NCBI GenBank assembly: GCA_050633205.1
Contig: JBOEGA010000026.1
Coordinates: 1,412-65,411 of the forward strand
DNA: 64,000 bases
Reading direction: 5' to 3'
From: Methyloligellaceae bacterium
Lineage (GTDB): Bacteria > Pseudomonadota > Alphaproteobacteria > Rhizobiales > CBDHHC01
Within the stretch, counting starts at the first letter, position 1. Every line of letters begins with the position of its first letter. The position numbers were made by a program, and so were the translations under genes. The notes beneath the pieces were generated by a model that was not told the DNA's origin, searched no databases, and saw nothing but the letters and a program-made list of their open reading frames with translations. Shown piece by piece: positions 1 through 38,600 of the stretch.

Positions 1-559
1 AATATGTATACCATTTGATTTAGAGGGGTATAAAAAACTTCCTTTGCAACAACTTAATGATTACCTTAATAGAGGGCTGATCGCTAAGACACCAAAAGCT
101 ATTCGTGAGTTTGATGAAACACGGTTTCCTAAGCATGAATATACCCAACTTCCCATTGCTCAAATTAGCGAATTTTTTATTGAACATTTTATAAAAGGTA
201 TGAAAGCTGTAGAAGGTGTATTTGAAATTCCTTCTTCTTTATTTTTAGAAGCAATTGAGAAATTCAGAAAAGCACAGTATAAAAATAAGTGGGTTTTAAA
301 AGCAAAGACTTTCAAAAAAGAACGGATAAAGGTAGTATTAGAAAATGAACTATTAATTTCTGATTTTCTCTTAAATCTTAAAATTTTATGTGATGACGAA
401 ATTGTATTCTCAGAGGTTCTGTTGCGTAGACCACCAAGTGAGTATATATTTCAACACCTCTTAAAAGGCCCATTAATCAAAAAAGTTTCCCCTCAGATAT
501 TATTTATTGATATAAGTGGACATACATATAGAAAAGATATTTCTGAGTATTTGAATTAG
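1..559 (+). CDS. hypothetical protein, probably 5'-truncated by the window edge
   Basis: The ORF track starts at TTG 44. The same frame (codons from nt 2) has no stop back to the window start. The product is Lys/Glu/Ile-rich and very AT-rich. I recognise no motif. Confidence 0.4.
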   Translation, partial: ICIPFDLEGYKKLPLQQLNDYLNRGLIAKTPKAIREFDETRFPKHEYTQLPIAQISEFFIEHFIKGMKAVEGVFEIPSSLFLEAIEKFRKAQYKNKWVLKAKTFKKERIKVVLENELLISDFLLNLKILCDDEIVFSEVLLRRPPSEYIFQHLLKGPLIKKVSPQILFIDISGHTYRKDISEYLN

Positions 560-1273: not shown

Positions 1274-1559
1274 TTAGCCTCGAAACAGCATTATTCTTAT
1301 ATGAGGCAAGCTTTTTTCCCCAACCCCAACACCTCACTCAACCTCTCCCCAAGCTGCTCATTCACCTCTCGCAACGGATCATGCGCCAGATGGGCATACC
1401 GTGCAGTCGTCTGAGGTCGCGTATGTCTGAGTAATTACCCAATCAATGGTAATGAAGTCCTGCTAGCAGCAAGGCTGGCAAAAGAGTGACGCAGATCGTG
1501 GAGGCGTACATCCATCAAAACCGGTAACCCTCTCCTTTTCAAGAGAGATGTGTCAGATC
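1274..1559 (-). pseudogene. tyrosine recombinase (phage-type integrase) C-terminal fragment with an internal stop
   Basis: The reverse strand translates to ...LKRRGLPVLMDVRLHDLRHSFASLAASRTSLPLIG*LLRHTRPQTTARYAHLAHDPLREVNEQLGERL... It has the HxLRH box and the catalytic-Tyr 'ARYAH' box. An in-frame TAA sits at 1435-1437. The N-terminal two thirds are missing, and the fragment abuts the IS fragment at 1560. Confidence 0.65.
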
Positions 1560-1790
1560 TTATCTCGACTTATTCACATTAACCCTGGTTTGTAGAAAAT
1601 AAGACGGATCGCCTTTCCTTCTTCTGACACTAAAATTTTTATATCGGCTGATGATCTTATATCCGGTTTTCCTTGAAATAATGGACTCTCTGCACAATGG
1701 AGCCATCTTCTTACCATCAAGAAGCCTGGCCACTAAACGAAGACGTTCATCCATACGATTACACTCCTTCCAGGGCATTCTGCTCTCCAT
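1560..1790 (-). mobile_element. IS481-family transposase N-terminal (HTH) stub, truncated
   Basis: MPWKECNRMDERLRLVARLLDGKKMAPLCRE.IISRKTGYKI..RYK matches the characteristic N-terminus of IS481-type transposases. The reading frame degenerates after about 50 aa. No catalytic DDE region follows. Confidence 0.6.
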
Positions 1791-1863
1791 AGCAAAATGC
1801 TAAAAGTGTAACCTATGTGTCCGGTCGTACACTTGTATTGGAGCTTCTGATGTACAAAGTTTA

Positions 1864-1901
1864 ATGTCCTTACAGTCAGGTGCTGTAAGGACATTTTTTT
1901 G
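1864..1901 (+). terminator. 12-bp perfect hairpin followed by a T-run
   Basis: The sequence is atgtccttacag-tcaggtg-ctgtaaggacat followed by ttttttt. The T-run is on the plus strand. The hairpin lies just downstream of the minus-strand tpsA stop, so it may act bidirectionally. Confidence 0.5.
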
Positions 1902-1919: not shown

Positions 1920-4900
1920 TTACTTAGGTTCACATGAGTTTACCTCAGATTCACATGAATTTACCTCAGGTTCAAATACAGATGGGTCAATACTCTGCAA
2001 TTGTTCTGGTGCGCCTACCTCCTGAAGATCCGTTGGAGGAGGGGTAAAGTCCAGTTCTGGTTTGTCGATATTAACAGGTGGTGAACACCCCTTTGAACAC
2101 TTTTGTGCCGTGACTGAAATCAGGGCACCATATCCAATAGCTGGGACGACAACTTTCAAAACCTTCCTTCGTGTTATACTTGAGCCAGCCAATGCGGTTA
2201 TTAGTCTAAACTGGGCTTCAGGGTCTACAATTGTCGTTTGATCTTTTGCTCGCTTTCTCGCCAGCTCAGCCTTTTCATCTGCATCTACCAAAATTCCGGT
2301 TTCACTTGTTTGACGAGTATCTTTTCCCCCTTTGTTTACGATCTCAGGTTTACTCACTGCATTTCCGTTAGCATCTTCTATTACTTTTTCGTCAACCCAA
2401 CTGGAGCCATCCTCGGAAACTCTTCGGCGCGTAATTTCAATATTTCCATCGGGTAACTCTTTTCTATCCAGGATTTCACAACCATTATTATTGTGAACCC
2501 AGGCCCGGGTTTTGCCTACGAAATAGGTATGAGTATCTGCGACCTCGAAATTGTATACTTTCTTCTGTTTATTCTCAACTTTCATTGAACTGACTCTTAA
2601 AACAGAGCTTTGTCCTTTATTTGATGTTGAAGCGAGGTGAAGATATTCATTCTCAACACCAATACCACTGACAATGGCCTGACCTATTTTCAGATCGCCG
2701 GCTTTTATAAAGCCTTCGCCCGGTACATAAAACGGATGGTCTTTCGTTGTTTGGAATATTTCGGAGGAACCATTTTGATGTTCCAGTGTGAGATGCAGAA
2801 TATGGTCAGAGTTTCTTCTGAAAAGTTCAACAACAGGTTTGAATACTGTCTGTTTTGTGTGCTCATCTCGACTGACAACTAAATCACCAACTTTAATCTC
2901 CTCTATCGGTTTCATACCCTTTGAGGTCCATATTAATGTCCCTGCAACGAAGCACTTCGAAAGGTCATTCGCATTGGGGCCACCTTTATTGTCATGTGAA
3001 TTATGAGAAACATCCCTTGAACCGTCAGGCCTTTTCTTGTTGCCAACAATTTTTGACGCTTTTTTTCCAAGTCTGGTTTTTTGAGCAAGACTTGCTATTT
3101 TTCCAACACCTGCTGCTCCGATAAAGAGACTGATAATCTTGCCACCTCCAGCAAGCTTTTGTTGTGTTTCCTCATCAAGTTCATTCCAGTGTTTGCTGAC
3201 AACGTTGCCTGTTTCATCATCAACATACTTAACTACCGCATCAATATAGACACCGGGCACGCTTAATAATTCAAGAACAGCCTGTGTTTCATCAGGGAAT
3301 TGTTCGGCTGCCAGTGTAATTGCCCCTTGCACTCCGGCTTCAGTAAGCTCGGAAACACTATCATCTCCGGCTCCTACTTTTCTAACACCCTCAACCGGAT
3401 CGCCATCCCCTTCTGCAAGTACATAACCGATCACCACTCCAGCCAGTGCAGCCAGACAAAGTCCACCACATAATGCGTTATTTTCAGCAGCATTACCTCC
3501 TGTCATGGCTCCAACAGTAGCATCATGCCCAATAGCGGCTGCAGAAATAGCCCCTCCAATTCTAGCGATTTGAATCGTCGTGTTTTCGAACTCTTTATCG
3601 TTTGTCTGCTCTTTAATGGCCGCTGCCAGTTCGGAAGGGGAAATTTCGCCATTAGCCAAAGCCTCTACTTTTTCCAGAATTTTATCTTCAGCAGCTGATT
3701 GTATTCTATCTGCAATAAACTCGCCGGCTACTGCACCTACGGCGCCACCTACACAATCCTTGCTTGCCAGTTGTCCAACTGCACATCCCAATGCTGCATG
3801 AGCGCCATAATGAACAACTTCCCCTATATCTCCGGCATGGTATGCATCGCCTATCGCTGTGGCGCCGACTGTGGCGACAGTGTTAATACCTGCAGTTTTC
3901 AGGTTATCAACGAGGTGATCTTCAAACTTACCACCTGCAATAAGTGTTGTAGCCGAGGCCGATATAATAGCTCTTGTAGTATTTGTTACTGATGCCTCAA
4001 TTATCTGAGCAGGTATCTTATCAAGGCCGTTAGCCTGAAGCTGTGTTGCACTTGCTCCAAGAGTATCCAGTACCTGAGGTAAAATTGCCTGAGTAGCGCC
4101 TGCAGTTACTGCTGAAATAGCGACTTTTGCAAGAGTTTCTGTCGACGTTAGTTCTTGCAGTATTTTAACAGGGTTACCCTGATTGTTAATGGTACTTAGA
4201 ACAGCAGTATTAATGAGCGTATGTGTCGCTGCAGCTATGGCAGCATTGGCGACAGTACCCTGAGCTGCTCCCAGAGCAACTCCAACCCCTGAACCTGCAC
4301 CGAATGTAACGATAGTGACAACAGCAGTAACGACGACGGTACCAACAACGCTTAAGCCCTGGGATGTGTCATCCCAATGCCTGTTCTCGGCAATAACTGC
4401 AGTCCATTCTATATCTTCATTCTGGGCAATCTGCTTGATCCACTGGTGCCCTTCATCTCCTGCAATCTTATCTATAGAGTTATCAAACTGCCTGTCCAGA
4501 ATACTCTGCTTATGATCAGCAAATTTGTTCCCGGACATATTACGAAGGTTTTTTATTTCTTTTATAGAAAGAGGAGAATTTGACGCTCCACCTCTCGGGG
4601 CAATATAACGCTCAAATTCTTCGTCACTCATACTCTGGATGTTGTCGTAATTATCCAGTGTCCATTGCTCGTCTTTTGTGAGGGGTTGTTGTTCATACTC
4701 AACACTGACATGTTTTACCTGTCTGGTATCTATGCCACCACCTTCATTATTTATAATTGTAGCATGGATAATGGTTTCATTCGATGCGCCTTTACTGTTG
4801 TTATGAAACCAGAAGAAACTGCTCTCATCAGTTGTTGTATTTGTAATAACAACGTCCTTGGCTGCATTGAACTGTAATTTACCATTTGGTACTACAAATA

Positions 4901-7900
4901 CTGGTTTTGTGTCAGTCTCTATTCGTGTACCCCCATCAACAATGACATCGCCATTCTTAGATTGGGTTGTAAGGTTTTTTCCATTGAGGGTTGTACCAAC
5001 TGTTTTGATTTCTGTGCGGCTTGATTTTTTATCAACATCATTTGACCACGGGTTGACTACACCAGCCCAGCCTGCTGTTTCCACTTTCAGAGAAACAGTG
5101 GTTTCCTGCACATCGTGCACATCTCCGTATGTGACGCCCTCATTTCCGGAAACCAGAACATCATCACCCCATGATAAATCACCACCTATAATGCTTGTTG
5201 CTCCATCAGCATGAATAGTAAGGTTACCACCTGCTGATACGCCTGATTTTTTATTGGTAAGGTTATAAGTGGTACGGGAACCTGATATATCAACGTCTTT
5301 AAAACCAATTAAACCAAAACCGAGTAAAGGGGCTATTGCTATTCCCGCATTAACTTCAACGTCTTTGCCGCTGGAGCTGAAGCTTGTCTTAAATTCACTT
5401 TCAGTTTGTTGTGCATAGATGTTGATATCACCGCCAGCTACCAGCGTAGCGTCATTGCCAGCGCTAATGTCCCCGCCGATTGAATTGATATTGGTATCAG
5501 ATTCCAGAGCGAGATCATTTTTAGCCGTGATAGAAGCTGTCGTATTCAGCCTTTCCCGATAACCGTTTTTATAAACATTTCTTGTAACAGTTGTCTCATT
5601 GTGAATTGCAGTAGCCTTGATACCTACATTATTTCCAGAGATCTCACCTGAGATATTTTCCAGCAACCCAATGCCGGCAATAACATTTCCGTCCTCATCG
5701 ACTTTAAATGAAGTTAAATCCCCAATGGAAGCAATGCGACCACCAAGATTTTTAAGATGGTCAGCTTCCAGGTGCATATCGCCACCGGAGCTTATGGTGC
5801 CGGAGTTATGGATGGTGCCGGCTGACAGTATTGTACCCTGATCACCATGAATGATTGCTCCACCAGCTACCAGGGTCTCTTTTGCAGTCTTCTGCGTTAG
5901 ATACACTTTTGGGGCAAGTACCATTTTTCCGTCAACTTCGACAGCAACGAGCCAGATAATATCTTTTTTGAGAGCTGCAACCTGTTCCGCTGTCAGAGCA
6001 ACGCCAAGAGTTAATTTTAAATCACCGGCTACTTCTGCGGCATTATCATAGAGTGTTTCCATCATGTCGCTGGTATCAGTATAACCGTTCAGGATATTAT
6101 TGCCTGTCAGGTTAATAAGCTGGTTTTCGACGAGACGGTTTTCAACATACGCATCACCAAGTCTTTTCTGAATATCATTGGGATTGATATCCATGCGTTC
6201 AAGGAATTTATCAGAACCGTAGAAATTTCCAAGATCAGTAAAACGTGGGTCAGATTCATAAACGAAAGAACCGTCGGGGTTGGGGCTGGTTATAATAAGC
6301 CCACTGCGTCCAAAGTCTTTAAGCGCTGAGTTTGCGGGAAGTCCGATCTGTATAAGGCTGGCCCCTCCCATCGTTTGCTTGCCTCTGGTCTGACTATGCA
6401 AACGGTTGGTTTCAAGTTGTTCCCAACCAAAAATATTTTCTTGCTGGTTCTTAATCTGTTCGGTATGTGAGCCTTTTACCTTGCCTCCTTTTGCTGTGAT
6501 GGTTGAAGCAAGATATCCTATAACTTCGGTATCAGTATCGTGCTCATCATGAGTATAGGTATGTGTGTCGTGATCAAAACAAATGCCAAGAATTCTTGTC
6601 GCACAATAACGTTCTGAGTGTGTTGTTGTTGTCGTTGTATCTGTGGTTCGTCTAAGTTCAAGCGCAGTGTTCTCAAGTGTTTCGCCAATTATTGTCAGGT
6701 CTCCCCCACCTGAAGCAATCAGGCTGTATTTGTTAACCACATGCGTAGCATCAATAAGCATGCTGCTGCCTGATAGGATTTGTCCCGGAGCGGTAAGATT
6801 ATCTTCATTAATACTATCCTCCCTGACCCTGACGTGTTTTGTTGTTCCGGATCCAAGGTCAAATGTTTCGTCGCTGACCTGATTGGTTTCTTTCCCAACA
6901 TTTGTGTTGCTTCTGGTATTGGTGACACGGGTAGCTTTAATGAAAAGTGGCCCGCTGAATGTCTGAATGATTCCGGACGAGTTTGTTATGCTGTTTGTTC
7001 GACCAAAATCATTTAAATCTTTAGCATCATCGCTTTTTGCCAGACCTGTAATCAACATTTGGTTCTCCGCGAGAATTTCCCCTCGCGAATTCAATAGTGT
7101 ATTACCAACCTGAATGGTGGCATTGTTCCCTGCGTAGATAACTCCCTGGTAGTTTTTGAGGTCCTCGGTCACGTCGAGGAAAATATCCCCATCTTTACTG
7201 CCTATGCCTGAAGAGTTGCTAAGATCTTTTGCAGACAAGAAAAGCAAACCATTGCCAATTATAGTATTTCTGTTGTCAACCTCACCGCCGGCTTCTACGA
7301 CGAGAACATTCTCTGAGAATATCTTTTTATGGTTCTGAATGTTACATTCTGCCGTAATATTTAAAAACTCTGCTGCAGTGATATCTCCTGAATTGGTAAT
7401 ATTATGGGCTGTTAGATTGAGCGTATGATCTGAATTGATTTCAGCACCTTCTTCATTGGCCAGGCTGCCTGTCAGTACGAGGTCAGCTTGTCCTGCTGCA
7501 TAGATAACTCCCTTGTTGATGAGGCTGCCTGATATAGCAACTGGTCCACCTTCACCAAATTCACCAGCCAGAACCTGCGGAAGGCCGATATCAGGGCGGT
7601 TGACCCCGTGATCACTATTAATATTCAATTCAAGTAAGCCAGCTTTAATATTGCCTTCATTATGGAGTGCTGACGTATTGATGATAAGCGTACCGCTACT
7701 CAGGATTTCAGATCCATTGGGGTTACTTCTTGTATAAGCATAGCGGTTATGAATACCTTTGGCTGTAATTTCCAGCCTTTCACCACTGAATACGGCTCCG
7801 CTGTTAGTAAAAATACCTGTTATGTCCGCAACAACTGTTCCTTGTTCACTGCCCACTCCACCGTGGTTATTCCAGCTTTCGGCATTTATACTGAGATCAG

Positions 7901-9602
7901 CACCTGCCATTGTTGCACTATTCGCAGCCGTATATAACCTGTGTTTGATATCCAGCGAAACGTTGCCTGTGGGGTCTCCTGTGCTTTCTGCACCAGCAAA
8001 AATAACTCCATAATTGCTAAGGTTATTTGCAACAATCGTTACTTCATTTCCGGCAACAGTATTGCCTGTATTGTTGATGTCAGAGGCATTGATAGTGATT
8101 GTATCACCTGCACCAAGCTCTCCTCCTCCATAATTAATAATAGTATCGGAATTGATTGTCAGAGAGGCCAGCTGGCTAATTACAATGCCCCTGTTTTTTA
8201 ATGTTGCAGCATTAATTTTAATGCCTTCTGTGCCAGCAAGAACACCATCCCCCTCATTTCTAAACTCATCACTTATATTGAGAGCCAGCTTGCCAATAGC
8301 CTGAAAATTTCCTGCATTTTCTCCTGAGCGAGAGGATATGTTGATGTTACCACCAGAAACGACCGTTCCCCCCTGATTACTGACAAAGCCAGCTTCTACA
8401 ATGAGATTAACATTTTCTGACAACTCTCCATCAGCATTGAGACCGGCAGCCAGCATAGCATCTTGCTTAAGTATCAAATCTGAGGTGCCTGTTTGCAGAA
8501 CAAGTTGGCCTTTGGAAGCAGCAACTGATTTTTCGAGTAGAGTAATTCCCTTATTGGCCAGTATTTCCAGGCCTGTCTCTGACCAAACAGCCGTATCTTT
8601 AGCAAATGTAATTGAACTTTTCTTAGATTGAATGCTTATTCTGCCTTGTGAGCTTGCAGAGCCAAGAACAATTTTTCCACTAGCAGTCAGAGTAATTCCT
8701 CCGGAGCCAGCTGTCATTTGTTTGGGAGTGCGCATGCCCACGCCATTTTCAGTGCCGACAAAGGTAATTCTATTTGCATAGGCTCCGCCTAATAGACTGG
8801 AATCAATTCCAAATTCAGGTTTTCCAGAGCCATTATCTGCTTTTGCTTTAACTACTCTTTTGACATAATCAAAATCATTGCGCCCGGCATATACTCCAAT
8901 ATCTTTACCGTGTATTGCGCCGTTAATAGCGACAGAGCGTGTCACAACATCAAAATAGTCCGTGCCGCGCGCATCGACCGCAAAGTCACCGCCATCCCGC
9001 TTAGCCTGCTCAAATCTAATATCCCCGTCTTCTACTGAGAGGCCCAGAAGTTCACCTGTACTTTGATCCAGTACAGGCCTCCCTGTCGAAAGAGTTGCAC
9101 GGGGTATATTATGAAATCCACACCCCTTACAGGTTATGCCATTTGGGTTTGCCAGGATAAACTGTGCTGATGGGCCAAAGACTTCAACATAACCCTGTAA
9201 GTTAGAGCGATTGCCACTTGTAACCTCATTTAATATGATACGAGCACTTTTCCCCTGCAGCTGCTCATTGCCGAAGATAATCCCCCCAAGAGCTGACTGA
9301 CCGTGCTTCGTACTGTTGTTAAGAACAGCGCCTCCCGTACTGACGTTAAAGTCAGTATATTTATTATGAGATACTCCAGCCTGATTGGGTTTTGCTATAT
9401 CGACTACCGTTACGCCATTGTCTGCCGTGCCTACTATGGGCTGGTTCTGACGCGAAGCGTTGGTATCGGCTTTAATTTTTGATGCCTGAGCAAAAGAGGG
9501 AAGAATTGTGCTCATAAAGAATGATATTGCAGTTATGCAGGCTATTGCTCCACGAGCAATCTTATGCCTGGATACCAGAGTTGAGAATCCAATTCGTTTC
9601 AT
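1920..9602 (-). CDS. giant TpsA/CdiA-like filamentous-haemagglutinin-family exoprotein (2560 aa) with a C-terminal Hint domain
   Basis: The N-terminus has an extended signal peptide plus a TPS secretion domain ([29 protein letters not shown]). Long beta-helical FHA-type repeats follow. Then come LTAEQVAALKKDIIWLVAVEVDGKMVLAPKVYL, a Gly/Ala-rich pretoxin region with HYGAHAALGCAVGQLASKDCVGGAVGAVAGE, then GGNAAENNAL (VENN-like), a Hint domain and a 190-aa tail. Confidence 0.9.
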   Translation of the reverse strand: MKRIGFSTLVSRHKIARGAIACITAISFFMSTILPSFAQASKIKADTNASRQNQPIVGTADNGVTVVDIAKPNQAGVSHNKYTDFNVSTGGAVLNNSTKHGQSALGGIIFGNEQLQGKSARIILNEVTSGNRSNLQGYVEVFGPSAQFILANPNGITCKGCGFHNIPRATLSTGRPVLDQSTGELLGLSVEDGDIRFEQAKRDGGDFAVDARGTDYFDVVTRSVAINGAIHGKDIGVYAGRNDFDYVKRVVKAKADNGSGKPEFGIDSSLLGGAYANRITFVGTENGVGMRTPKQMTAGSGGITLTASGKIVLGSASSQGRISIQSKKSSITFAKDTAVWSETGLEILANKGITLLEKSVAASKGQLVLQTGTSDLILKQDAMLAAGLNADGELSENVNLIVEAGFVSNQGGTVVSGGNINISSRSGENAGNFQAIGKLALNISDEFRNEGDGVLAGTEGIKINAATLKNRGIVISQLASLTINSDTIINYGGGELGAGDTITINASDINNTGNTVAGNEVTIVANNLSNYGVIFAGAESTGDPTGNVSLDIKHRLYTAANSATMAGADLSINAESWNNHGGVGSEQGTVVADITGIFTNSGAVFSGERLEITAKGIHNRYAYTRSNPNGSEILSSGTLIINTSALHNEGNIKAGLLELNINSDHGVNRPDIGLPQVLAGEFGEGGPVAISGSLINKGVIYAAGQADLVLTGSLANEEGAEINSDHTLNLTAHNITNSGDITAAEFLNITAECNIQNHKKIFSENVLVVEAGGEVDNRNTIIGNGLLFLSAKDLSNSSGIGSKDGDIFLDVTEDLKNYQGVIYAGNNATIQVGNTLLNSRGEILAENQMLITGLAKSDDAKDLNDFGRTNSITNSSGIIQTFSGPLFIKATRVTNTRSNTNVGKETNQVSDETFDLGSGTTKHVRVREDSINEDNLTAPGQILSGSSMLIDATHVVNKYSLIASGGGDLTIIGETLENTALELRRTTDTTTTTTHSERYCATRILGICFDHDTHTYTHDEHDTDTEVIGYLASTITAKGGKVKGSHTEQIKNQQENIFGWEQLETNRLHSQTRGKQTMGGASLIQIGLPANSALKDFGRSGLIITSPNPDGSFVYESDPRFTDLGNFYGSDKFLERMDINPNDIQKRLGDAYVENRLVENQLINLTGNNILNGYTDTSDMMETLYDNAAEVAGDLKLTLGVALTAEQVAALKKDIIWLVAVEVDGKMVLAPKVYLTQKTAKETLVAGGAIIHGDQGTILSAGTIHNSGTISSGGDMHLEADHLKNLGGRIASIGDLTSFKVDEDGNVIAGIGLLENISGEISGNNVGIKATAIHNETTVTRNVYKNGYRERLNTTASITAKNDLALESDTNINSIGGDISAGNDATLVAGGDINIYAQQTESEFKTSFSSSGKDVEVNAGIAIAPLLGFGLIGFKDVDISGSRTTYNLTNKKSGVSAGGNLTIHADGATSIIGGDLSWGDDVLVSGNEGVTYGDVHDVQETTVSLKVETAGWAGVVNPWSNDVDKKSSRTEIKTVGTTLNGKNLTTQSKNGDVIVDGGTRIETDTKPVFVVPNGKLQFNAAKDVVITNTTTDESSFFWFHNNSKGASNETIIHATIINNEGGGIDTRQVKHVSVEYEQQPLTKDEQWTLDNYDNIQSMSDEEFERYIAPRGGASNSPLSIKEIKNLRNMSGNKFADHKQSILDRQFDNSIDKIAGDEGHQWIKQIAQNEDIEWTAVIAENRHWDDTSQGLSVVGTVVVTAVVTIVTFGAGSGVGVALGAAQGTVANAAIAAATHTLINTAVLSTINNQGNPVKILQELTSTETLAKVAISAVTAGATQAILPQVLDTLGASATQLQANGLDKIPAQIIEASVTNTTRAIISASATTLIAGGKFEDHLVDNLKTAGINTVATVGATAIGDAYHAGDIGEVVHYGAHAALGCAVGQLASKDCVGGAVGAVAGEFIADRIQSAAEDKILEKVEALANGEISPSELAAAIKEQTNDKEFENTTIQIARIGGAISAAAIGHDATVGAMTGGNAAENNALCGGLCLAALAGVVIGYVLAEGDGDPVEGVRKVGAGDDSVSELTEAGVQGAITLAAEQFPDETQAVLELLSVPGVYIDAVVKYVDDETGNVVSKHWNELDEETQQKLAGGGKIISLFIGAAGVGKIASLAQKTRLGKKASKIVGNKKRPDGSRDVSHNSHDNKGGPNANDLSKCFVAGTLIWTSKGMKPIEEIKVGDLVVSRDEHTKQTVFKPVVELFRRNSDHILHLTLEHQNGSSEIFQTTKDHPFYVPGEGFIKAGDLKIGQAIVSGIGVENEYLHLASTSNKGQSSVLRVSSMKVENKQKKVYNFEVADTHTYFVGKTRAWVHNNNGCEILDRKELPDGNIEITRRRVSEDGSSWVDEKVIEDANGNAVSKPEIVNKGGKDTRQTSETGILVDADEKAELARKRAKDQTTIVDPEAQFRLITALAGSSITRRKVLKVVVPAIGYGALISVTAQKCSKGCSPPVNIDKPELDFTPPPTDLQEVGAPEQLQSIDPSVFEPEVNSCESEVNSCEPK
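2490..2954 (-). other. Hint / bacterial intein-like (BIL) domain inside the TpsA C-terminal region
   Basis: The domain starts at Cys in SK|CFVAGTLIWTSKGMKPIEEIKVGDLVVSRD. It ends VYNFEVADTHTYFVGKTRAWVHN|NNGC. These are the canonical Hint N-terminal Cys block and the C-terminal 'HN' block. Confidence 0.8.
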
Positions 9603-9665
9603 TTAGAAACACTCCTAATATGAATAACAATTCTACCAAATCAGATCCCCATCTATCGGTAGTGT

Positions 9666-28589: not shown

Positions 28590-29183
28590 TCAGGATACCA
28601 ATTTAGCAAATGCCTGATCAAAGCCTTTTAGGGGTACGCTAATTTTGATATCTTTCTGGTTTACATTTTTAAAGGTGACATTGAGGACTTTGCCGCTTCT
28701 CATTTTTTTCAGTAAAGCACCTTTTACCGGCATACCAACATAGCAACCTCTCTGGTCGCAGGTCTGTATCTGCTGGGTATCTTCTTTTTCATTATCAATT
28801 TTAAATTTCAAGCCTGATGGAAGGTGTAATCCGTGCGGAAGCTGCACCATCATAACACCGTTTTTCTTATCTGGTGTTGCGCGCACAGTAATGCTCAATA
28901 AAAGCTGGCGTGTTTTTCGTAAAAATAGTTGTTGGGATGCTGCACAGTTAATTTTTACTCCATTGCTTGAGCAGTTGACCTGCCAGGGGAGAGGAGATGG
29001 TGCAGCTTTAGCAGTTTTATTGCCTGCTTTTTTATCGCTCGCCTGTGCAATTTTTGTCTTGTTGTCTTTACCCCATGATGAGAAGAGAGATGATGAGGGT
29101 TCTTTGGCAAATGCAGATGTCCCAATCGCGAGACAAAGCCCGGATATAGATGCAAATGTATATATCGTCTTTAGTGCATTCAT
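28590..29183 (-). CDS. IalB (invasion-associated locus B) family periplasmic protein, copy 2, divergent from the autotransporter
   Basis: It has a signal peptide (LCLAIGTSAFA). IalB-like landmarks are PWQVNCSS...INC, IQTCDQRGCYVGM and NVTFKNVNQKDIKISVPLKGFDQAFAKL. Confidence 0.7.
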   Translation of the reverse strand: MNALKTIYTFASISGLCLAIGTSAFAKEPSSSLFSSWGKDNKTKIAQASDKKAGNKTAKAAPSPLPWQVNCSSNGVKINCAASQQLFLRKTRQLLLSITVRATPDKKNGVMMVQLPHGLHLPSGLKFKIDNEKEDTQQIQTCDQRGCYVGMPVKGALLKKMRSGKVLNVTFKNVNQKDIKISVPLKGFDQAFAKLVS

Positions 29184-29647
29184 TGTTGTGACCTGTTTAT
29201 TCTTCTTTGTTGAGTAATTTTCGAGTTCGTATCTGCCATCAAAAGAGAGTTCTTGTCATAAGTCAAAATAAATTTTTATAGATGCAGATAATTTCCATAA
29301 TAATTGTACATGCATTAATGTTATGCATTTTGACGCCTTGTAAATAATCAAATTGTTGTATATTTGCTCAATCAAACGAAAGTCTATGTATCTGTATCGC
29401 AACATTTTTTTTTGTATTTCATAAAAGCAATTTTTGTAGTGGTTTTCCCTATAGATCAATGTGTGAATTTTGATCAGTATACTTTTCAGTAAGAAATATG
29501 TTTTGAATGCAATTATACCGCATTTTACATAATGCTGCAGCATGATTGTGAAATTGTGTCTGTTGTCACAGTATGCCCAAATAGTTCAGCGCCATGAAGC
29601 GCTGCTGCACATTTGCAAGATGTGTATGTAAAAAGACAGAGGTTTGT

Positions 29648-32600
29648 ATGTTTTCTCGTTTTGCGTCTTGTCGCCCAGATGTTTCTTTCGTGCGTATAGT
29701 CTCTTCAACTTCCAAAAAACTGATTTTTAGAAGCTGTTTGTTTGCAATTGCTCTTACCGGAGCAGTTGCGGGGCAAAATGTTGCCGTTGTGAAAGCTGAT
29801 GGTATTGATCTGTCAACGAAGGGTGCTGATGGTAAAAAGGGTAAAAAGAATTTTTATTTTTTCTGGTCAACCACAACCGACGGTGAAAAAGGCAAAGATG
29901 GCGGAAAGATAGACAAGACAATAAAGCAGGATGTTACTAGCAGTTCATCTCATGGAATAAATGCGGTCAGTACAGGGGGTAAAGGCGGAGATAGCGCCAG
30001 TTCCTGGGGCGTATTTTATAGCGGTACCGGCAATGCAGGTCGCGGTGGTAACGGCGGAGAAATAGAACTTAATTATGATGGCACTTTGAGTGTAAGCGGT
30101 GATGGTAACCACGGCATCAATGCAGTGAGCCAGGGAGGCAATGGTGGCCGGGGGGGTAAGTCTGAAGCAGCTTTTGCTTCGGACTCGGGAAGTTCCGGAA
30201 ATGGTGGTCAGGGCGGCAAAGTTACCGTAACCAATAATGGCCATATATCAACCACAGGTAATGAATCATACGGTATTAATGCTGTCAGCCGGGGTGGAGT
30301 AGGTAACGGTGGCGGATATGCCGGGAGTGGATTTGTTTCAGTTGGAGGCCGTGGAGGTGACGGTGCTTCGGGAGGTGATGTTACTGTAACGAACAACGGG
30401 GTTATCGAAACACATGGTTCAGGCTCTCATGGAATTAATGCCTTAAGCGAAGGCGGTAATGGCGGATCTGGTGAGGGTGGACTTGGCGTCTTTATCGGTG
30501 GTGTCGGGGGTTCTGGTGGAAAGAGTGGAGATTCCGGAAAGGTTGAGGTAACCAACAAGGGCAGCATTACAACCAGAGGAAATGAAGCGCATGGCATTAA
30601 TGCAGTAAACGGTTCAAGTCAAGGTGGGAATAGCGGCTGGGGCGGAGGCCTGTTTTTTGGTGCTACACAGAATGCTGGAAATGGTGGTAGCAGTGGTGAA
30701 ATAATTATTACCAATGGTAAAGATGGAGAAATAAGAACACACGGTAATTCTTCACATGGCATTAATGCAGAATCATATTCAGGAAATGGTGGACGTGGCG
30801 GAAATGTCTTTGGAGTCTTGTTTGGCCTTGGAGGTGCTGGTGGTTCTGGCGGTGGTTCTTCCGGGACAATTGATATAACCAATGAGGGAAAAATAGCGAC
30901 TTCAGGTGATGGTTCCCATGGAATTAATGCTATCAGTCACGGTGGTAGTGGCGGTGATAGTGGTTTGGGGTTAAGTGCATTTTTTGGTGCTGCACTTGAT
31001 GCTGGAAGTGGTTCTGGTTCCGGAAATATAACGATTACTAACAGTGGTGAAATTCATACATCCGGCAGTGGATCTCATGGTATAAACGCCGAAACGTCTG
31101 GCGGTAATGGCGGTCATGGCCAGGGTTCATTCGGTCTGATATTTGCTCTTGCCGGTCTGGGCGGAGATGGAGCTCTTGCTGGTCAGATAGATATTACGAA
31201 TAATGGGCTTATTACGACTTCAGGAAACAACTCGCATGGAATTAATGCTATCAGCAATGGTGGCAATGGCGGCAATAGTGGCTGGTCGGGAAGTCTTTTA
31301 ATCGGAGCTGCACAAGATGCCGGTGGCGGTGCTGCTGGTGGGAAAATCACTATCGTTAATAGCAAAGATGGTGAAATTCATACAAAGGGTGATGGCTCTC
31401 ACGGCATTAATGCTGAAAGTACCGGTGGTCATGGTGGACATGCACAGGGAACAATCGGAGTGCTGTTTTCGCTGGCAGGTCTGGGTGGTAATGGCGACCT
31501 TGGTGGTCAGATAGATATTACAAATCAAGGAACAATTACTACTTCAGGCGATGGTTCGCATGGAATAAATGCAGTTTCGACAGGTGGATATGGCGGCAAC
31601 AGTGGCTGGTCCGGTGGTTTGATAGCAGCTACACAACATGCCGGGAATGGTGGTGCCGGAGGACTAATAAATATTACCAATACTGGCATGATCCAGACAA
31701 CTGGCGAAAAATCTCACGGTATTAATGCCGTTGTAACTGGAGCACGTGGTGGTAACGGGGGTGATGTAATCGGGGCTCTTATCGGAGTTGCCGGTAAAGG
31801 TGGCAGAAGTGAAGGTGCCGGAGATATTGTCATCAATAATGAAGGAAGCATTGTAACATCAGGAACCGGGTCTCACGCGATAAACGCTGTTAGCGCTGGT
31901 GGATATGGCGGTACAGGGGGCTGGGCTGGCTGGGGTATGCTGGCTGCTGTCGCAGGCGGCGGAGGTGATGGCGGAAATGGTGGCAAGGTTACCGTTAATG
32001 ACAAGAATACCAGGACTGACCGGGTGTTTTTTACAATGGGTAAAGAGGCTCATGCGGTTAATGCCGAGAGTAAAGGAGAAACAGGTGGTCAGGGTGGCCT
32101 GACTGTCGGATTCCATCTTTTTGCTGGTGGCAGTGGTAGCGGCAGTGGTGGTAATGGCGGTAATGGTGATACCGTTGATATCAATTTCCTGAATTCACGA
32201 ACAACTGTACTGACAGCCGGTGAAAATGCACACGGTCTTGTTGCCAAAAGCCAGGGTGGTTCTGGTGGTAATGGGGGTATGTCTGTTGATGTTACCGGAG
32301 GCATGGGAGTAGCGCTGGGTCTTAGTTTTGCTAATTCCGGGGGAGATGGTGGTCATGGTGGTGACGTCTCTGTCAGAAACAGAGCAACTATAGTTACCGG
32401 CTATACTGAAGACGGTGTAACTGATGGCGTCGTTAATAATGGCAAAAATGCATATGGTATCAATGCAGTCAGTAATGGCGGTGATGGCGGCCGAGGTGGT
32501 GATGGTTATGTTTTCAGTTTTGCTATTCCGTATAAAGGAAGTCCTGCTGGCAGTGCAGCTATCGGCCTTAGTGGCCGTGGAGGAAATGGCGGGAATAGTG

Positions 32601-35600
32601 GCAGTGTTTATGTTCAAAACTCCGGTAAGGTCATAACATATGGCGAAGGTGCGCATGCAATTAATGCTGTAAGCCAAGGAGGAAATGGAGGCAATGGCGG
32701 TAATATTATTTCGGGTGCCGGCGCCTTTGGTACATCCCATACCGCAGCTGTGGCATTTGGAAAAGCTGGCGATGGCGGTGCTGGTGGTGCAGGTGGTATT
32801 GTTGATACCAGTAATTATGGCAGTATTTACACAAAAGGTGATGGTGCTTACGGGATTAATGCAGAAAGTACAGGTGGTGATGGCGGTAATGGCGGCATGG
32901 CAATATCTGCCGGTATTGCGTATTCCTTAGGTTCATCTGTTCCCGGAGTTAACAAGTCAAAGTCTGTCGCTGGCTCAGTAGCATGGAGTGGAAATGGTGG
33001 TAAAGGTGGTAATGCCAGTTCCGTGACCGTATCAAATGCAGGCAAGATAATAACTGACGGCAAAAGCTCGTACGGTATTAATGCAGTTGCTAAAGGTGGT
33101 AAAGGTGGAGATGGGAATGTAGCCGTTTCAGTTAGCCTGGCACCGGATGCAAATATCAGCTCTGCTGTTGAAGGAAAAGGTGGCAATGGTGGTACTGGTG
33201 ATCAAGTTACTGTTTCCAACAGAGGTGTAATCGCGACATTTGGTGATAAGTCACATGGCATCAATGCAGAGAGTGTTGGTGGCGATGGTGGTGTTACAGA
33301 CGTGACTGTTGCTGCTGGTGTGTCAGGTGGTTTCTCGCTAAATTTTGATATTCCTGCATATGGTGGTACGGGTGGAAATGGAAGTACCGTTACTGTAACC
33401 AATAAAGGTGTCATCTATACAAACGGGGATAACGCTTATGGAATTAATGCTGCAAGTCGTGGTGGCAACGGTGGTAATGGTGGCACTAATGCTGCAGCCA
33501 ACCTCTCACTGGGTGGTGATACCGGTGTAAATGTTGTTTCAGGTTCTTTTGGTGGACAAGGTGGTGCTGGTGGTTATGTGAATGGCCAGAATATCGGTCA
33601 GATATTGACTGAAGGGGAGGGATCCCATGGCATGTACGGAACCAGTGCAGGTGGTCAGGGCGGTCTAGGCGGTGACGTTATTACAGTTGGTGCCCTGAAT
33701 AAACATGGCCTGAATGTTTCAGTTGGTGGAGCTGGTGGCAATGGCGGGGGTGCAGGTTCTGTAAACCTTACCAACAGGGATATCATTCAGACAACCGGGC
33801 ATAATTCCATCGGCATGTATGGCCGTAGTAATGGCGGTAATGGAAATACAGGAGGTATGTCAATTGCTGTTGGTGTCGGGCAGATTTTACCTGAAAAATT
33901 CGGAATTAAGAATTCGCCAGCCGGAGCCGGATTGCAAGGCGGTAAGACTAATGTCGTCTCAAGGATATCAAACAGGCTAAAAAATACTCCAATTCAGGGG
34001 GCGGTATCTGTTGGTCGTAAAGGCGGAGATGGCGGTAACGGCGAAAATGTTACTCTGAAAAATAAACCTGGTTACAAGGTCAGAACCTGCAAGTTTATAT
34101 TCTTTTGCAGCGAAGCCGTTCAGGATGAGGAACCTGAAGAAGTAAACGGAGGAAATTTCTTTACACGACTGGTAAGTAATACAAAGGTCACGAAGCTTGA
34201 GGCTACAATATACACAGCTGGTAATTCTTCTCATGGTATGAAGGGAGAAAGCAGCGGTGGTGATGGTGGCGAGGGTGGAAAAGCCCTTGCTGTTGCCGGG
34301 GAAGGCTATTCAAAAGATCGAAATGCTGTCGATATCACCGATACGACTAAAGTGGACAGATTTAAAGATCCGAAGTCCGGTAATATTGCAGTGTCCTTTG
34401 CCGGAGATGGAGGTCGGGGCGGCAATGCCGGTGTTATAGACCTTACTAATTCAGGGGATATTGTAACTTCCGGTCATGGCTCAAGCGGTATGTATTTTCA
34501 TGGTGCTGGAGGGCATGGTGGAGATGGTGGTAATTCAGGGCTTGGTAAAAAGTTCTGGGGCGATGGTCTGTATGGTCTTAACCTGAATTTCGATGGAGAG
34601 AGTATTCTTGATCTTGGAGAGGATGCTGAACTGGGATTTGGCGGCGCCTATGTTTACGGAACGGGCCAGGGATCTATCGGTATCGCGATAAGTAAAGGCG
34701 GCAATGGTGGCCATGGTGGTAAGGGTGGCCAACTTATTGGTCTGAATGAAGGTAATGTCTGGACTAATGGTGTTGGAAGTGCCGGTATCAAGGCAGATGC
34801 CTCAGGTGGCAATGGCGGAGACGGTGGTATTGCGAATGCCGGAGCGATTGCATTTGCTGCTGAAACCACAACAAGTATTGCGATTGCTGTTGGCGGTGAT
34901 GGTGGTAATGGCGGTAAAGGTGGAATAATTAATTTTACCAATACTGGCAATATTATTACCGAAGGTACCAGTTCTGCCGGGATAGATGCTATCAGTGCAG
35001 GTGGTCGCGGTGGTGACGGGGGGACAGCCCGGGCATTCTACCTACAAAGGAATAAATCGAAACCTAAAGATACTCCGGGTACAGGTTCTTCTACATCATC
35101 AACACGCCCGGATTCAGGCAGCAGTTTATCAGATGCCATGAATTCAGCCGGAGATGCTGGCGGTAAACCAAATAAAAGTCTTATCTCGGCAGCATGGGAT
35201 CACATAAGAAAAAATCAGAAACCGAGTAAAGGTGATGATGCTCTCGCTAATGCTAATAACAGTGAGTATGGCTTTGAGATGACATTTGGCATGGGTGGTT
35301 CTGGTGGACATGGCGGTGATGGCGGTACTGTTGATATTACAAACCAGGGACAGATTTATACTGAAGGTGCTTTTTCTGCTGGTGTAAATGCTGCCAGCAT
35401 TGGAGGCGATGGTGGTAATGGCGGGGATTCTGCCAGAGGTATTGGTATTCTCTGGGCACTGGCAGAAGTTGAAAGTCTTTCACCACACTGGGCTACTCTT
35501 ACCAATCCTAAAATTGATATCGGTGGAAATGGTGGTAATGGCGGTAACGGATCTACTGTTACGATCAGCAATAGTGGAAAGATATATACAGGCGGAAACT

Positions 35601-38600
35601 ATTCGTCTGGAATTTTTGCTGCCAGCAGAGGCGGTAAAGGTGGCAAAGGTGGAACTGGAGACTCCGGATATATTGGTGACCTTTCCATTGGAGGAGAAGG
35701 TGGTCAGGCAGGGAGAGCCGGTGAAGTTAAAGTTACAAATAAACGAGAAAATACAAGAGATGATTTGCCACTTATTGTAACGGCTGGTGAGATGTCAAAT
35801 GCTATTACAGCGATCAGTGCAGGTGGTCGTGGCGGTGATGGCGGTGATGCCAGGTTCGGTGGAGAATGGTCTGTTATTCAGGATATGATTAACAAGTTCC
35901 GGACAAATAATGCCTGGAAATCCAAAGACGATTTCAAGAAGGCTTTAAAATCCTTCAGAGACAAAACCTTCTTACCAAGAATGGGGCTTGCTCTGGCCTG
36001 GAATGGTCGAGATGGAGCTGACGGAGCTCTTGTACACATTGACAGTGAAGGCATTTTGAGTACTGCAGGTGAATTATCGCACGGTATTCTGGCTATGAGT
36101 AATGGTGGTCATGGTGGTGCAGGAGGCAGTACTTATTCGAGTAATATCGGTAAACTTCCAAGGCCTGGTACAGGTGGTAGTGGCGGTGCTGGTGGCATGG
36201 TTGATATTATACACAATGGCGATATTTATGCCATTGGTAATGGATCACACGGCATTGTTGCTCAATCCACTGGTGGTAAGCGTGGAGAAAATGGTCAGGT
36301 AGAATATGCCTGGCTTGAAATGCCGTGGGACCTGACGCCTGATGCTAACTCTGATGATATAGCAGACTGGGATAACCCCGGTGTTGAGATTGGCGATATT
36401 CCAATAATACCAGGGCTGGATATATTCAAAAAGGCAGAAGATGGTAACGGTGGTACTATATCGATAAATGGTGAAGGCCTGATATATGTGGGTAATGCTG
36501 GTAATACCGATGCCTCAATTGGTATTCTTGCTCAAAGTATCAGTGGTGCAGAACCATTGGTGAAGGAAGTTACTGTTGAGATTAACGAAGAAGATCCTAA
36601 TGGTGATGGAGATACCAGCGATGCTGTTGACCTGGATGGGGATGGCAAGACAGATGGCAAGGTTCAGGTTGTCAATCTGGTTCCAACTGGTGAGCGTATA
36701 ACTTCCAAGCCGGGAAGCGGCAAAGGCGGTGATATCATTATCGATCGCAGTGGGGCTATCATGAGTCCTTATGACAATGGTATTGCAGTATTGCTTGAAA
36801 GTGCAGGCCAGCAGGGAGGTGGGAACATTGAATTCACCTTCAATAAAGGGAGCAATGAAATAAAGCTTTCAGATGCCGATGATGCACAGGACTTTAATGG
36901 TTATATCATTGGTGGAAGTGGCAGTGATGGTGCAGCTATTCTGATCAGAGGGGGGGCTGATAACAAGATTACCCTTGGTGAAGGTACCACTGTTTATTCA
37001 GGAAACTACAGAACGATAATTTCTGAAGATTCTTACGGAGATTTCAGTGTTATCGGTAATGACACAATCAATAACCATGGAAAGGTTATTGGTAATGTTG
37101 ACCTTGGCAGAGGCAATAACACATTTAATAACAAGGCGGGAGCTGAGTTCGTGACATATGAGCATGTCAGGCTTGGTAGTCCGGGCAACTATCTTGTTAA
37201 TGAAAGTGGCGGTTTGATAAATCCTTACGGCCTTGGTGTTGGTGAAACAAAGGTTGATGGTGGATATGTCGGAGAAGATGGCAGTAAAATGCGCTTTGAC
37301 GTACACTTTGGTTCAACCCGAACGCCTTATGTTTCTACTGGTGGTACCAATACAGGTCATACCTCAGGCTCAAATCCGAATTATGATAGCGATCATAGTG
37401 GTTCGCAAAATCCGGATGCAGATAAGTTTGCTGATATGACTGCTCGTGAAATTATTGAGTATTACAAGAATAACAAACCTTCAGCAGGTGAGAATGTACC
37501 GGATATTGCTAACCCGGACAGACCTGGTCAGGGATTTGGTTCTAATGAATTTGATAATGACACAAATGATACTGACGATAACGAAACCAGAGCGAACAAC
37601 CCTGAGGGTAGTGATCGTATGGTCTTTACAGGTAATGTTCACCTGAATGGTGCTATCTATATTGATCTGTTCAACCTTAGCAGGGGTGAGGAAACGCTGG
37701 TAATCTCAGAAGGGGACCTGACTGTTGGTAATGATCTGAAACTGGAGAAACTTTTCAGTAGTGCAGCTCTATCCAATATGGATTATGAGGTGATCAAGGA
37801 TGCTGATGGAAAAAGTCGTTTTATTGTAAAAATTGAAACTGATATTCAGAGGCTTGCTGCGAAGGGGAACCAGTCCAGTCTGAGTGTTCATCTTGATGAA
37901 ATTGTGAATGAGAGTGAGGATGGTGCCGGAGATGGCCTTTCTAATGCTCTGGCTTCTCTCGTCAAGGTTCCGGAGGGCCAGGAACATCTGATTGCTGCCT
38001 CGTTGGATACCGTTCATTCTGAGGCCTACCTTTCCCAGTTTACAAGTGCATTATTTTCTGACCTTGGTTTTGTGGACAGAATGGCAAATTGTGGAACCCA
38101 TGGTATAAGTTCCAGAATAGTTAATGGTAATTGCATCTGGGGGCAGGCTACTGTCAGGCAATTTGAGCAAGGAAGCAGTCTTACCAGTTTTGGAATGGAA
38201 GAAGATAGTCATATCTTTGCCGGAGGTTATCAGAGGGCAATATCCGAGAATGTGATGCTTGGAGTTTCTCTTCAATATGACCAGGGAACTTTGAAGGTTG
38301 AAGACAGGCTGACAAGTAAAATCAAAGCCGGAAAAATAGGTGGCTTTGGCAGATATAAAGAAGGGCCTTTTGAATTTACACTTGGGGCAAACTACGGTTA
38401 CAGCTGGTATGATAATAGCAGACGGATCAGTCTTCCAACCCAAATACTGAATGACGAAGGAGAAACTGAATATGGCCTTGGGGTTTTGCTTGCAAAAGGA
38501 AAAAGCTCTATTCAGTCTGGTGGTGTTCAGTTGCAGCTTGCCTATAAGCATGAGACCCGGAAGATGTATATTAAGCCCTTCATTGATTTAAGAGCAAACT

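Follow-up and report, generated by a model that had tools for sequence, protein, structure and literature searches.

A putative self-cleaving Hint domain in front of an orphan tail at the C-terminal end of a CdiA/FhaB-like exoprotein from a Methyloligellaceae bacterium

Analysis of a 64,000-nucleotide stretch of DNA from a Methyloligellaceae bacterium (GenBank assembly GCA_050633205.1, contig JBOEGA010000026.1, positions 1,412 to 65,411; hereafter the window) focused on the 3' end of tpsA, which encodes an exoprotein of the FhaB/CdiA class. With moderate confidence, we regard this end as the C-terminal "warhead" of a type Vb polymorphic toxin (CdiA/FhaB class), in which a BIL (bacterial intein-like) domain would release an orphan cargo. 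The protein is built up in the order two-partner secretion (TPS) domain, filamentous hemagglutinin (FHA) repeats, DUF637, AENN motif, a module shared with other toxin ends, basic linker, BIL, and orphan tail. Its unusual features are the singleton cargo, the BIL nested within the C-terminal region (CT), and the lack of an immunity gene, while the overall architecture has already been described. The features on which the argument is built are listed below in window positions, with residues given as amino acids (aa) of TpsA. Structure predictions were made with AlphaFold2 (AF2), and their confidence is given as the predicted local distance difference test (pLDDT).

1920..9602, minus strand: tpsA, TpsA exoprotein of the FhaB/CdiA class, 2560 aa, with TPS domain, Fil_haemagg_2, DUF637, and PT-HINT
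11419..13182, minus strand: tpsB, outer-membrane transporter of the ShlB/FhaC/CdiB type, 587 aa, same operon, assigned by Pfam
3732..4241, minus strand: DUF637 pretoxin region, aa 1788-1957 (PF04830, E 5e-23)
3477..3731, minus strand: pretoxin segment ending in AENN, aa 1958-2042, the VENN-equivalent boundary
3087..3476, minus strand: conserved post-AENN module, aa 2043-~2172 (~130 aa), defined by alignment to four toxin ends
2955..3086, minus strand: true linker, aa ~2173-2216 (~40 aa), basic, of low complexity and not conserved (AF2 pLDDT <50)
2490..2954, minus strand: PT-HINT / type-A BIL domain, Cys2217-Asn2371 (PF07591, PDB 2lwy, AF2 model)
1923..2489, minus strand: orphan tail, aa 2372-2560, 189 aa, putative BIL-released cargo, without family, coding-like
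2331..2480, minus strand: four-stranded beta-meander, tail residues 4-53 (~50 aa), predicted by AF2
2106..2162, minus strand: hydrophobic helix resembling a transmembrane (TM) segment, aa 2481-2499, VLKVVVPAIGYGALISVTA, with basic flanks (Kyte-Doolittle hydropathy 1.78 over 19 residues)
1929..1974, minus strand: 21-nt tandem duplication encoding EVNSCES/EVNSCEP (Tandem Repeats Finder period 21, 2.2 copies, 92% match, score 78)

The secretion class of the protein follows from the domains of TpsA and from its neighbor. TpsA carries a TPS secretion domain (PF05860, E 6e-47, aa 43-312; TIGR01901, E 5e-21) and FHA-type beta-helical repeats (Fil_haemagg_2, E 2.5e-8; TIGR01731, E 7e-5; Fil_haemagg borderline), and its cognate TpsB is encoded at the same locus. 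The latter matches ShlB (E 1e-82), POTRA_2 (E 1e-22), and POTRA_3 in Pfam and is named [quoted passage not shown] at NCBI. The protein is a two-partner-secretion exoprotein, namely a CdiA/FhaB-like TpsA of type Vb, and the initial annotation, made from the DNA letters and their open reading frames (ORFs), was right in calling its end CdiA-like, considering the TPS domain, the FHA repeats, DUF637, and the neighboring ShlB-type TpsB. The family of this TpsA is alphaproteobacterial and belongs to the order Hyphomicrobiales. An identical protein is deposited at NCBI as MGH1350108.1, originating from a Methyloligellaceae metagenome-assembled genome (MAG) with a contig of 79.5 kb. As it is named there "polymorphic toxin-type HINT domain-containing protein", the general class had already been recognized by routine annotation.

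Upstream of the variable end, the DUF637 region shares 30-36% identity with those of three related loci (L006, L007, and L008). At the AENN motif (aa 2039-2042, nt 3477-3488), the PT-VENN profile PF04829 aligns with profile positions 13-50 of 52 at a score just below its gathering cut-off (18.7 versus 20.3 bits, E 0.002); the L008 relative likewise stays below it with 19.1 bits. The motif reads AENN, not VENN, and the extended form AENNAL is invariant in four relatives, with abrupt divergence of the relatives afterwards. This can be followed within the locus L007, in which a full-length TpsA of 4898 aa and one cassette bear a different sequence right after AENNAL (FLIPVAVVALEVID...). Both are near-identical to the relative P0009 up to AENNAL, and two unrelated sequences alternate after it. 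Since the relatives keep AENNAL and the L007 sequences switch directly behind it, the alignments show that in this clade AENNAL truly marks a recombination boundary of the VENN type, consistent with the earlier reading of AENN as a VENN variant.

The stretch between AENN and the Hint domain had been described as a linker of ~175 aa, which does not hold for its larger part. Its first ~130 aa form a conserved module that is 45-50% identical (E 6e-25 to 7e-37) to the corresponding position of four other toxin ends carrying different toxins:

P0008 (L006): C-terminal Scabin-like ADP-ribosyltransferase, then a 134-aa ORF 2 nt past the stop
P0009 (L007, 8001-9278): C-terminal unknown domain, then an Imm26 protein
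Second L007 cassette, 11249-12295: another unknown C-terminal domain, then a 150-aa ORF
L008, complete 1955-aa TpsA: LHH nuclease, then a SUKH immunity protein

All four module-bearing relatives diverge from the window protein after ~aa 2172 ("LAGGGxI.."). Because the first ~130 aa recur behind AENNAL in front of different toxin domains, the variable junction, as judged from these alignments, lies past the module at ~aa 2172-2180, and Hint domain plus tail fill the toxin slot of a bipartite CT. The module starts with a strongly hydrophobic CGGxC helix (Kyte-Doolittle hydropathy 2.29, aa 2044-2062) and was modeled in part, reaching pLDDT 81-86 for aa ~2119-2159 (~40 residues); the alignment used for this prediction was reduced by the L007 and L008 rows. 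No match to the module was found in Pfam, NCBIfam, PDB, or PHROG. A search with the AENN-to-Hint stretch alone as query returned nothing, whereas a query spanning DUF637 through Hint retrieved two relatives (P0008 and P0009), and a further locus (L008) emerged from a metagenome scan. CdiA-CTs are bipartite, consisting of an entry domain and a toxin (PMC9086364), and their entry domains are swapped among toxin domains and mediate import via an inner-membrane protein (PMC9086364, PMC11630599). The module of the window protein, N-terminal within the CT and recombined with a Scabin-like ADP-ribosyltransferase, an LHH nuclease, and two unknown domains, may by analogy act like such an N-terminal entry domain, although no characterized entry domain with a Pfam, NCBIfam, or PDB entry is homologous to it.

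The locus L007 additionally contains an array of orphan CT cassettes (8001-16713) downstream of its 4898-aa TpsA. Each of them has its own ATG, they share a signal-peptide-like leader ("MPxLFIxLLTSLSLLLGQGITPxxA"), and behind each follows a small ORF assigned to Imm26, to DUF6572, or to no family. Classical orphan cdiA-CTs are devoid of start codons. In view of their own ATG and leader, the L007 cassettes, unlike the classical ones, may be expressed as stand-alone secreted toxins.

The domain behind the linker was assigned with high confidence. The Hint domain, which the initial annotation had placed at exactly these coordinates (Cys2217 at nt 2954-2952, Asn2371 at nt 2492-2490), matches PF07591 over aa 2223-2371 with E 8e-27 and 94.5 bits versus a cut-off of 27.7. 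Its best solved relative is the BIL of Clostridium thermocellum (PDB 2lwy; E 1.7e-23 to 3e-25, 38% identity). In an AF2 model of aa 2030-2560, the Hint domain reaches pLDDT >90 and is superimposed by Foldseek on 2lwy with a TM-score of 0.91 and a root-mean-square deviation of 2.0 Å; lower-ranking matches are other BILs, mini-inteins, and Hedgehog proteins (1at0, 6tyy). The catalytic set is intact (Cys2217, Thr2286-x-x-His2289, and His2370-Asn2371, the domain ending AWVHN), and the Cys1, TxxH, and His-Asn columns are invariant in an alignment of 10 sequences, i.e., the window protein and nine homologues. Position +1 is occupied by Asn2372 and in the homologues by D, R, M, V, L, K, or I, with Cys, Ser, or Thr in none of them. 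The absence of these residues at +1 sets BILs apart from inteins (PMC4031507), and the domain does not classify as an intein, having Asn at +1, the flanks of a variable toxin end, and intein profile scores under the cut-offs. Profile, fold, and model all identify it as a true PT-HINT / type-A BIL domain. An insertion of ~17 residues (GIGVENEYLHLASTSNK, aa ~2318-2334, nt 2600-2650 on the minus strand), which neither 2lwy nor any of the nine homologues possesses, was modeled at pLDDT <50.

Type A BILs use a Cys1 thioester and Asn cyclization, with cleavage products outweighing splicing (PMC4031507). HINT has been described as a "releasing peptidase" located directly before the toxin domain, T5SS (type V secretion system) toxins included (PMC3482391). 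Class I CdiA proteins of Pseudomonas, such as P. syringae DC3000 PSPTO_3229 and P. protegens PFL_1552 (Mercy et al. 2016, PMC4725963), carry a BIL ending WVHN, and that of P. syringae autocleaves (PMC4725963, PMC9086364; the activity goes back to Amitai et al. 2003, as cited in PMC4725963). Based on the intact catalytic set and this P. syringae precedent, autoproteolytic cleavage at the BIL ends would be expected for the window protein as well. The earlier expectation of autoprocessing is in line with these examples from Pseudomonas CdiA (PMC4725963, PMC9086364) and from polymorphic toxins in general (PMC3482391). The accompanying remark that the end is "not a compact toxin" is less surprising than implied, because a PT-HINT preceding a C-terminal toxin is a described architecture.

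An intact BIL might also act without setting the tail free, either by splicing itself out (type-A aminolysis, resulting in a module-tail fusion) or by cutting mainly N-terminally, so that BIL and tail stay together. Both Cys1 and HN are intact, and an entry domain normally must stay joined to its cargo during import (PMC9086364). With Asn at +1, however, a nucleophile is lacking, as in all homologues aligned, and splicing would be inefficient for this reason; moreover, comparative work casts HINT as a releasing peptidase (PMC3482391). Retention of the tail is regarded as improbable.

The tail is real coding sequence. Its 189 codons are read without interruption, unlike the remaining frames of the minus strand, which are closed, and its codon log-likelihood amounts to 0.34/0.30 per codon and is positive in each third, compared with 0.275 ± 0.094 for the genes of the window. 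A degenerate or out-of-frame origin was rejected on account of the host-like codons in each third and the closed alternative frames. The composition proposed initially, ~190 aa with a charged segment, a hydrophobic stretch, and a tandem duplication, was found again, with the hydrophobic stretch at aa 2481-2499 and the in-frame EVNSCE(S/P) units at nt 1926-1967. Searches for relatives covered several resources. No family was assigned in Pfam, NCBIfam, PHROGs, or PADLOC, and a word-index search of 5.8 G clusters gave no homologue. Exhaustive phmmer against 1.84 G representatives returned the tail itself and two repeat-protein artefacts only (P0002 and P0003, rejected on reading as spurious repeat proteins). 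A JGI metagenome scan, a plasmid tblastn, and a PDB sequence search revealed no relatives, and a Foldseek fold search against PDB and BFVD yielded nothing below E 0.01. The tail is thus a singleton among ~15 billion proteins.

Structure prediction and remote homology search, both recommended at the outset, resulted in a predicted beta-meander with neither a relative nor a significant fold match. The strands of the meander were identical in the two predictions, with pLDDT 78-92 when no alignment was supplied and 76-91 within the model of the whole CT, and no significant structural match was found for it. Beyond it, the predictions are of low confidence and comprise charged helices, the TM-like segment, likewise predicted as a helix with low confidence, and a disordered acidic end. 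The last 60 aa (12 D+E, 10 P, 4 C; pLDDT 27-40) hold the duplication. Based on the single TM-like helix and the lack of a catalytic signature, we would guess at a cargo that acts on membranes or works non-enzymatically in some other way, rather than at a nuclease.

These properties also bear on a rival reading, in which the tail is filler or a remnant without toxicity, the former toxin and its immunity gene having been lost or replaced in rearrangements. The TpsA would then survive as an adhesin or biofilm factor with BIL and tail along for the ride. Both the singleton status of the tail and its disordered, low-complexity last 60 aa with the recent 21-nt duplication fit such a remnant. In contrast, an open frame of 189 codons whose usage is host-like throughout the three thirds, ~50 aa of beta-meander predicted with high confidence, and the preservation of every BIL catalytic residue are not what it would predict. 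Including the evidence from the 3' flank given below, we consider it unlikely, yet worth weighing seriously.

A far more remote idea is a Hedgehog-like transfer, in which the helical hydrophobic tail recruits a nucleophile, for example a lipid or a cell-wall amine, to which the upstream polypeptide becomes attached as the Cys2217 thioester is resolved. The Hint fold is common to the Hedgehog C-terminal domain (1at0 and 6tyy among the Foldseek matches), helices and a TM-like segment lie downstream of the Hint domain, and neither a toxin signature in the tail nor an immunity gene at the locus was found. If true, a type V secreted protein would here be anchored covalently, which would explain why an immunity gene is not needed; the tail would be an adduct-recruiting region instead of a toxin, and the TpsA body or the entry module would be transferred onto a lipid or envelope nucleophile. 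The domain is, however, PT-HINT/BIL by sequence and fold with 2lwy as closest structure, and the Hedgehog Hint profile matched only the N-terminal third of the domain, below threshold. Furthermore, the conserved C-terminal HN is typical of cleavage by Asn cyclization, a beta-meander of 55 aa stands between Hint and helices, and there is no precedent among T5SS proteins. Taken together, we assign it hardly any credence.

The 3' flank of tpsA contains the following elements:

1863..1895, no strand assigned: hairpin with a 14-pair stem (dG -20.6 kcal/mol, z -5.9)
1560..1824, minus strand: stub of an IS481-family transposase, 5' end and first ~76 codons (helix-turn-helix only), truncated (HTH_28, E 1e-5)
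~1297..1542, minus strand: C-terminal fragment of a tyrosine recombinase (HDLRHSFAS...RYAHL), stop-broken, found by six-frame reading (PF00589, E 2e-5)

The insertion sequence (IS) stub matches positions 2-40 of the NCBIfam IS481 transposase (E 8e-4), and its DNA is 71-73% identical to rhizobial IS copies from window position ~1824 to 1639. The recombinase fragment matches XerA/XerC/XerD models with E 7e-7 to 2e-5 over the last ~50 positions only. As the broken recombinase fragment abuts the truncated IS stub, the flank represents a stack of decayed mobile-element pieces. IS-derived DNA begins at ~1824, therefore only ~95 nt of native-looking DNA follow the tpsA stop. Of the initial description, 130 bp between the stop and an IS stub at 1790, the distance had to be corrected, whereas the hairpin said to occupy this space was recovered. 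None of 200 shuffled sequences folds as well, and the hairpin is unique in the window. Its T-run is located on the plus strand, opposite to tpsA, with an A-run ahead of the stem on the minus strand. For an intrinsic terminator, this layout fits the arrest of transcription arriving from the IS side better than that of tpsA transcription. Beyond the mobile-element pieces, an ORF at 1-559 (plus strand, GC 30-31%) is open to the window start, convergent with tpsA, and coding-like in its codon statistics; none of Pfam, NCBIfam, PHROGs, and PADLOC assigns it a family. It is probably part of the foreign element of which the IS and recombinase fragments are remains as well.

Within positions 1-1920, no cdiI-like ORF was detected, the small ORFs showing non-coding codon statistics; this agrees with the initial annotation, which had seen no plausible candidate. 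A 53-aa ORF at 1733-1894 was rejected as immunity gene on the basis of its codon score (-0.11/0.08 versus 0.275 ± 0.094 for real genes); furthermore, it has no Shine-Dalgarno sequence, its ATG lies inside the hairpin stem, and it overlaps IS-derived DNA. Elsewhere in the window, neither a further copy of module, Hint, or tail nor an orphan cassette was found. For comparison, seven loci were considered, four sharing the module and three sharing PT-HINT (L010, an RHS-PT-HINT-Cytotoxic protein; L011, RHS-PT-HINT-Tox-REase-9; and L012). In all seven, a small ORF on the same strand starts 2-27 nt past the toxin stop. Where cdiI would be expected directly downstream of a CdiA gene, the window shows ~95 nt with the hairpin, followed by IS-derived DNA. 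Considering these seven ORFs, the hairpin, the non-coding small ORFs, and the lack of extra copies, the locus truly has no immunity gene in this assembly, which is atypical of the class.

An assembly artefact, i.e., a contig mis-joined at the IS, or a cdiI located beyond the window or elsewhere in the genome would also explain this finding. The locus stems from a metagenome-assembled contig 79.5 kb long, IS-like sequence starts only ~95 nt past the stop, and related Logan contigs break inside tpsA, from which it follows that the locus assembles poorly. The IS stub is, on the other hand, a poor substrate for a chimeric join, being short, degenerate, and single-copy in the window, and the position taken by the immunity gene in the comparators (2-27 nt) is here occupied by the hairpin in apparently native DNA. 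Altogether, we rate this explanation as very unlikely.

The same flank completes the evidence on the non-toxic remnant introduced above. No immunity gene, against seven of seven comparators with one, and a flank consisting of decayed mobile-element pieces are both compatible with a toxin lost by rearrangement. A hairpin in native DNA between stop and IS speaks against it, because with this separation the 3' end of the gene does not look truncated by the IS. The missing cdiI can be read either as lost secondarily from a flank that mobile elements have scarred, which is plausible because the flank is clearly rearranged, or as the mark of a cargo harmless to its producer. The hairpin in native-looking DNA, the intact ORF of 2560 codons, and the decayed state of the mobile pieces make us lean slightly toward a cargo without need of an adjacent immunity gene.

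Based on this evaluation, the following sequence of events is proposed for the warhead reading. TpsB would export TpsA and, upon target-cell contact, the part after AENN would be delivered as in contact-dependent growth inhibition (CDI) of the E. coli type. The conserved module would serve as entry or translocation domain, probably engaging a membrane protein via its hydrophobic CGGxC helix. The BIL would then cut itself from the chain, Asn2371 cyclization breaking the HN|N bond, and the Cys2217 thioester could break the bond upstream of the BIL. As a consequence, the tail would be freed from the entry module, and the thiol-dependent step would be favored in the reducing cytoplasm. The effector would be the freed tail with its beta-meander, charged helices, TM-like helix, and disordered acidic end. 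A more specific version, in which the tail is a new, immunity-independent membrane-active cargo with a single TM segment, released in the target by a redox-gated BIL, appears doubtful to us and is put forward tentatively.

Several points weigh against the warhead reading. The tail has no homologue, catalytic motif, or structural match in our searches, and two thirds of it are predicted at pLDDT <50. All seven comparators possess an adjacent ORF and the window locus has none, and a self-toxic cargo without immunity should be counter-selected. Occurrence, site, and timing of BIL cleavage are all presumed from related domains. The entry role suggested for the module is deduced from its position and modularity, with no characterized entry domain matched. 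A MAG is the source of the sequence, and a mis-join at the IS is possible. Finally, the analogy to the Pseudomonas class I proteins is inexact, because their BIL precedes the whole CT and is not nested in it.

The closest systems are the class I CdiA of Pseudomonas, the PT-HINT polymorphic toxins in general, and the E. coli-type CdiA with bipartite CTs. With the first, the window protein shares the TpsA/CdiA type, DUF637, a BIL with WVHN, and a variable C-terminus past the Asn. In class I CdiA, the BIL directly separates the conserved body (DUF637) from the whole CT, followed by cdiI; in the window protein, AENN and the 130-aa module precede the BIL, which is thereby inside the CT, and an orphan tail without cdiI follows. 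Despite its AWVHN, it is accordingly not of the class I arrangement. As far as the alignments tell, the BIL lies within the CT, preceded by a VENN-type boundary and by a module resembling entry domains, while in class I CdiA the BIL replaces this boundary.

In respect to the PT-HINT polymorphic toxins (Zhang et al. 2012, PMC3482391), e.g., the RHS-PT-HINT proteins P0012 and P0013, PF07591 is shared at 33-41% identity, the catalytic set is identical, a +1 nucleophile is lacking, and the domain is likewise located just upstream of the C-terminal variable domain. Differences concern the ends, these examples terminating in Cytotoxic PF09000, Tox-REase-9, or a deaminase and the window protein in a family-less tail, and the loci, an adjacent small ORF being present for P0012, P0013, and the PT-HINT protein P0011 and absent here.

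The E. coli-type CdiA (PMC9086364, PMC11630599) has in common a VENN-type motif and an N-terminal CT module recombined with different toxins, and orphan cassette arrays as known there occur in relatives (L007) of the window protein. The latter deviates by its AENN motif with PF04829 just sub-threshold, a module without characterized match, the inserted BIL, and the absence of CdiI. In summary, it qualifies as TpsA and as type A BIL/PT-HINT, while two marks of CDI proteins are missing, i.e., a PF04829 score above threshold and an adjacent cdiI.

A mechanistic parallel is offered by StbD-CT of Citrobacter rodentium, in which redox-gated auto-processing frees the toxin from the entry domain (bioRxiv 10.64898/2026.05.07.723447). 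The proposed similarity would be a CdiA-like CT with auto-processing between entry domain and toxin under reducing conditions. In contrast, the StbD toxin, a C39 peptidase, cuts itself, whereas in the window protein a dedicated Hint domain would cut, and no sequence relationship exists. The BIL of Clostridium thermocellum provides the closest solved structure, but comes from a protein of a Gram-positive host in another context and lacks the GIGVENEYLHLASTSNK insertion.

The surroundings of tpsA show further particularities. The gene order upstream of tpsA on the same strand is tpsB (11419-13182), a mini-tpsA (10304-11398), and an IalB-family gene (9666-10232). The mini-TpsA (364 aa, 10304-11398, minus strand) is an internally deleted TpsA-like protein, its TPS domain being joined to a conserved "GYTDT..." piece that is found ~1000 aa into the big TpsA. 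The position of mini-tpsA and IalB-family gene between tpsB and the large tpsA was also seen in the locus L005 (6554-8271), and the order tpsB - mini-tpsA - ialB - tpsA is preserved in two independent Logan contigs (SRR26541433, SRR26541444). Two Logan contigs with TpsB at least 90% identical end inside tpsA and are uninformative on its 3' end. A scan of genome contigs, aimed at finding IS-free syntenic loci, yielded unrelated Hint domains only. More distantly, an ORF of 3134 aa (29594-38998, plus strand) without a Pfam family at E<=0.001 carries ~30 Gly-rich units of ~53 aa ("G.GSHGINA.S.GG.GG") at a spacing of 159 nt, the repeats covering 29939-36285. Its divergent neighbor is a second IalB paralogue (28590-29183, minus strand). 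IalB genes thus adjoin both giant secreted-looking proteins of the window.

The current understanding is not overturned by these data, and the architecture would not surprise a CDI specialist. If the proposed model is true, the protein would be a naturally occurring case in which a dedicated Hint domain that cleaves itself is placed between the entry module and the cargo of a contact-dependent toxin. The detachment of a delivered toxin from its membrane-bound entry domain has been experimentally addressed only just now, for StbD-CT, and the module-BIL-cargo arrangement represents a convenient test case for it. A construct of ~520 aa with obvious catalytic residues makes cleavage, redox dependence, and tail activity directly testable. 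In addition, the AENNAL plus CGGxC module accompanies at least five different C-terminal ends and may represent a new entry domain family, and the tail would, if the model holds, add an uncharacterized payload to the polymorphic toxins, possibly one needing no adjacent immunity gene.

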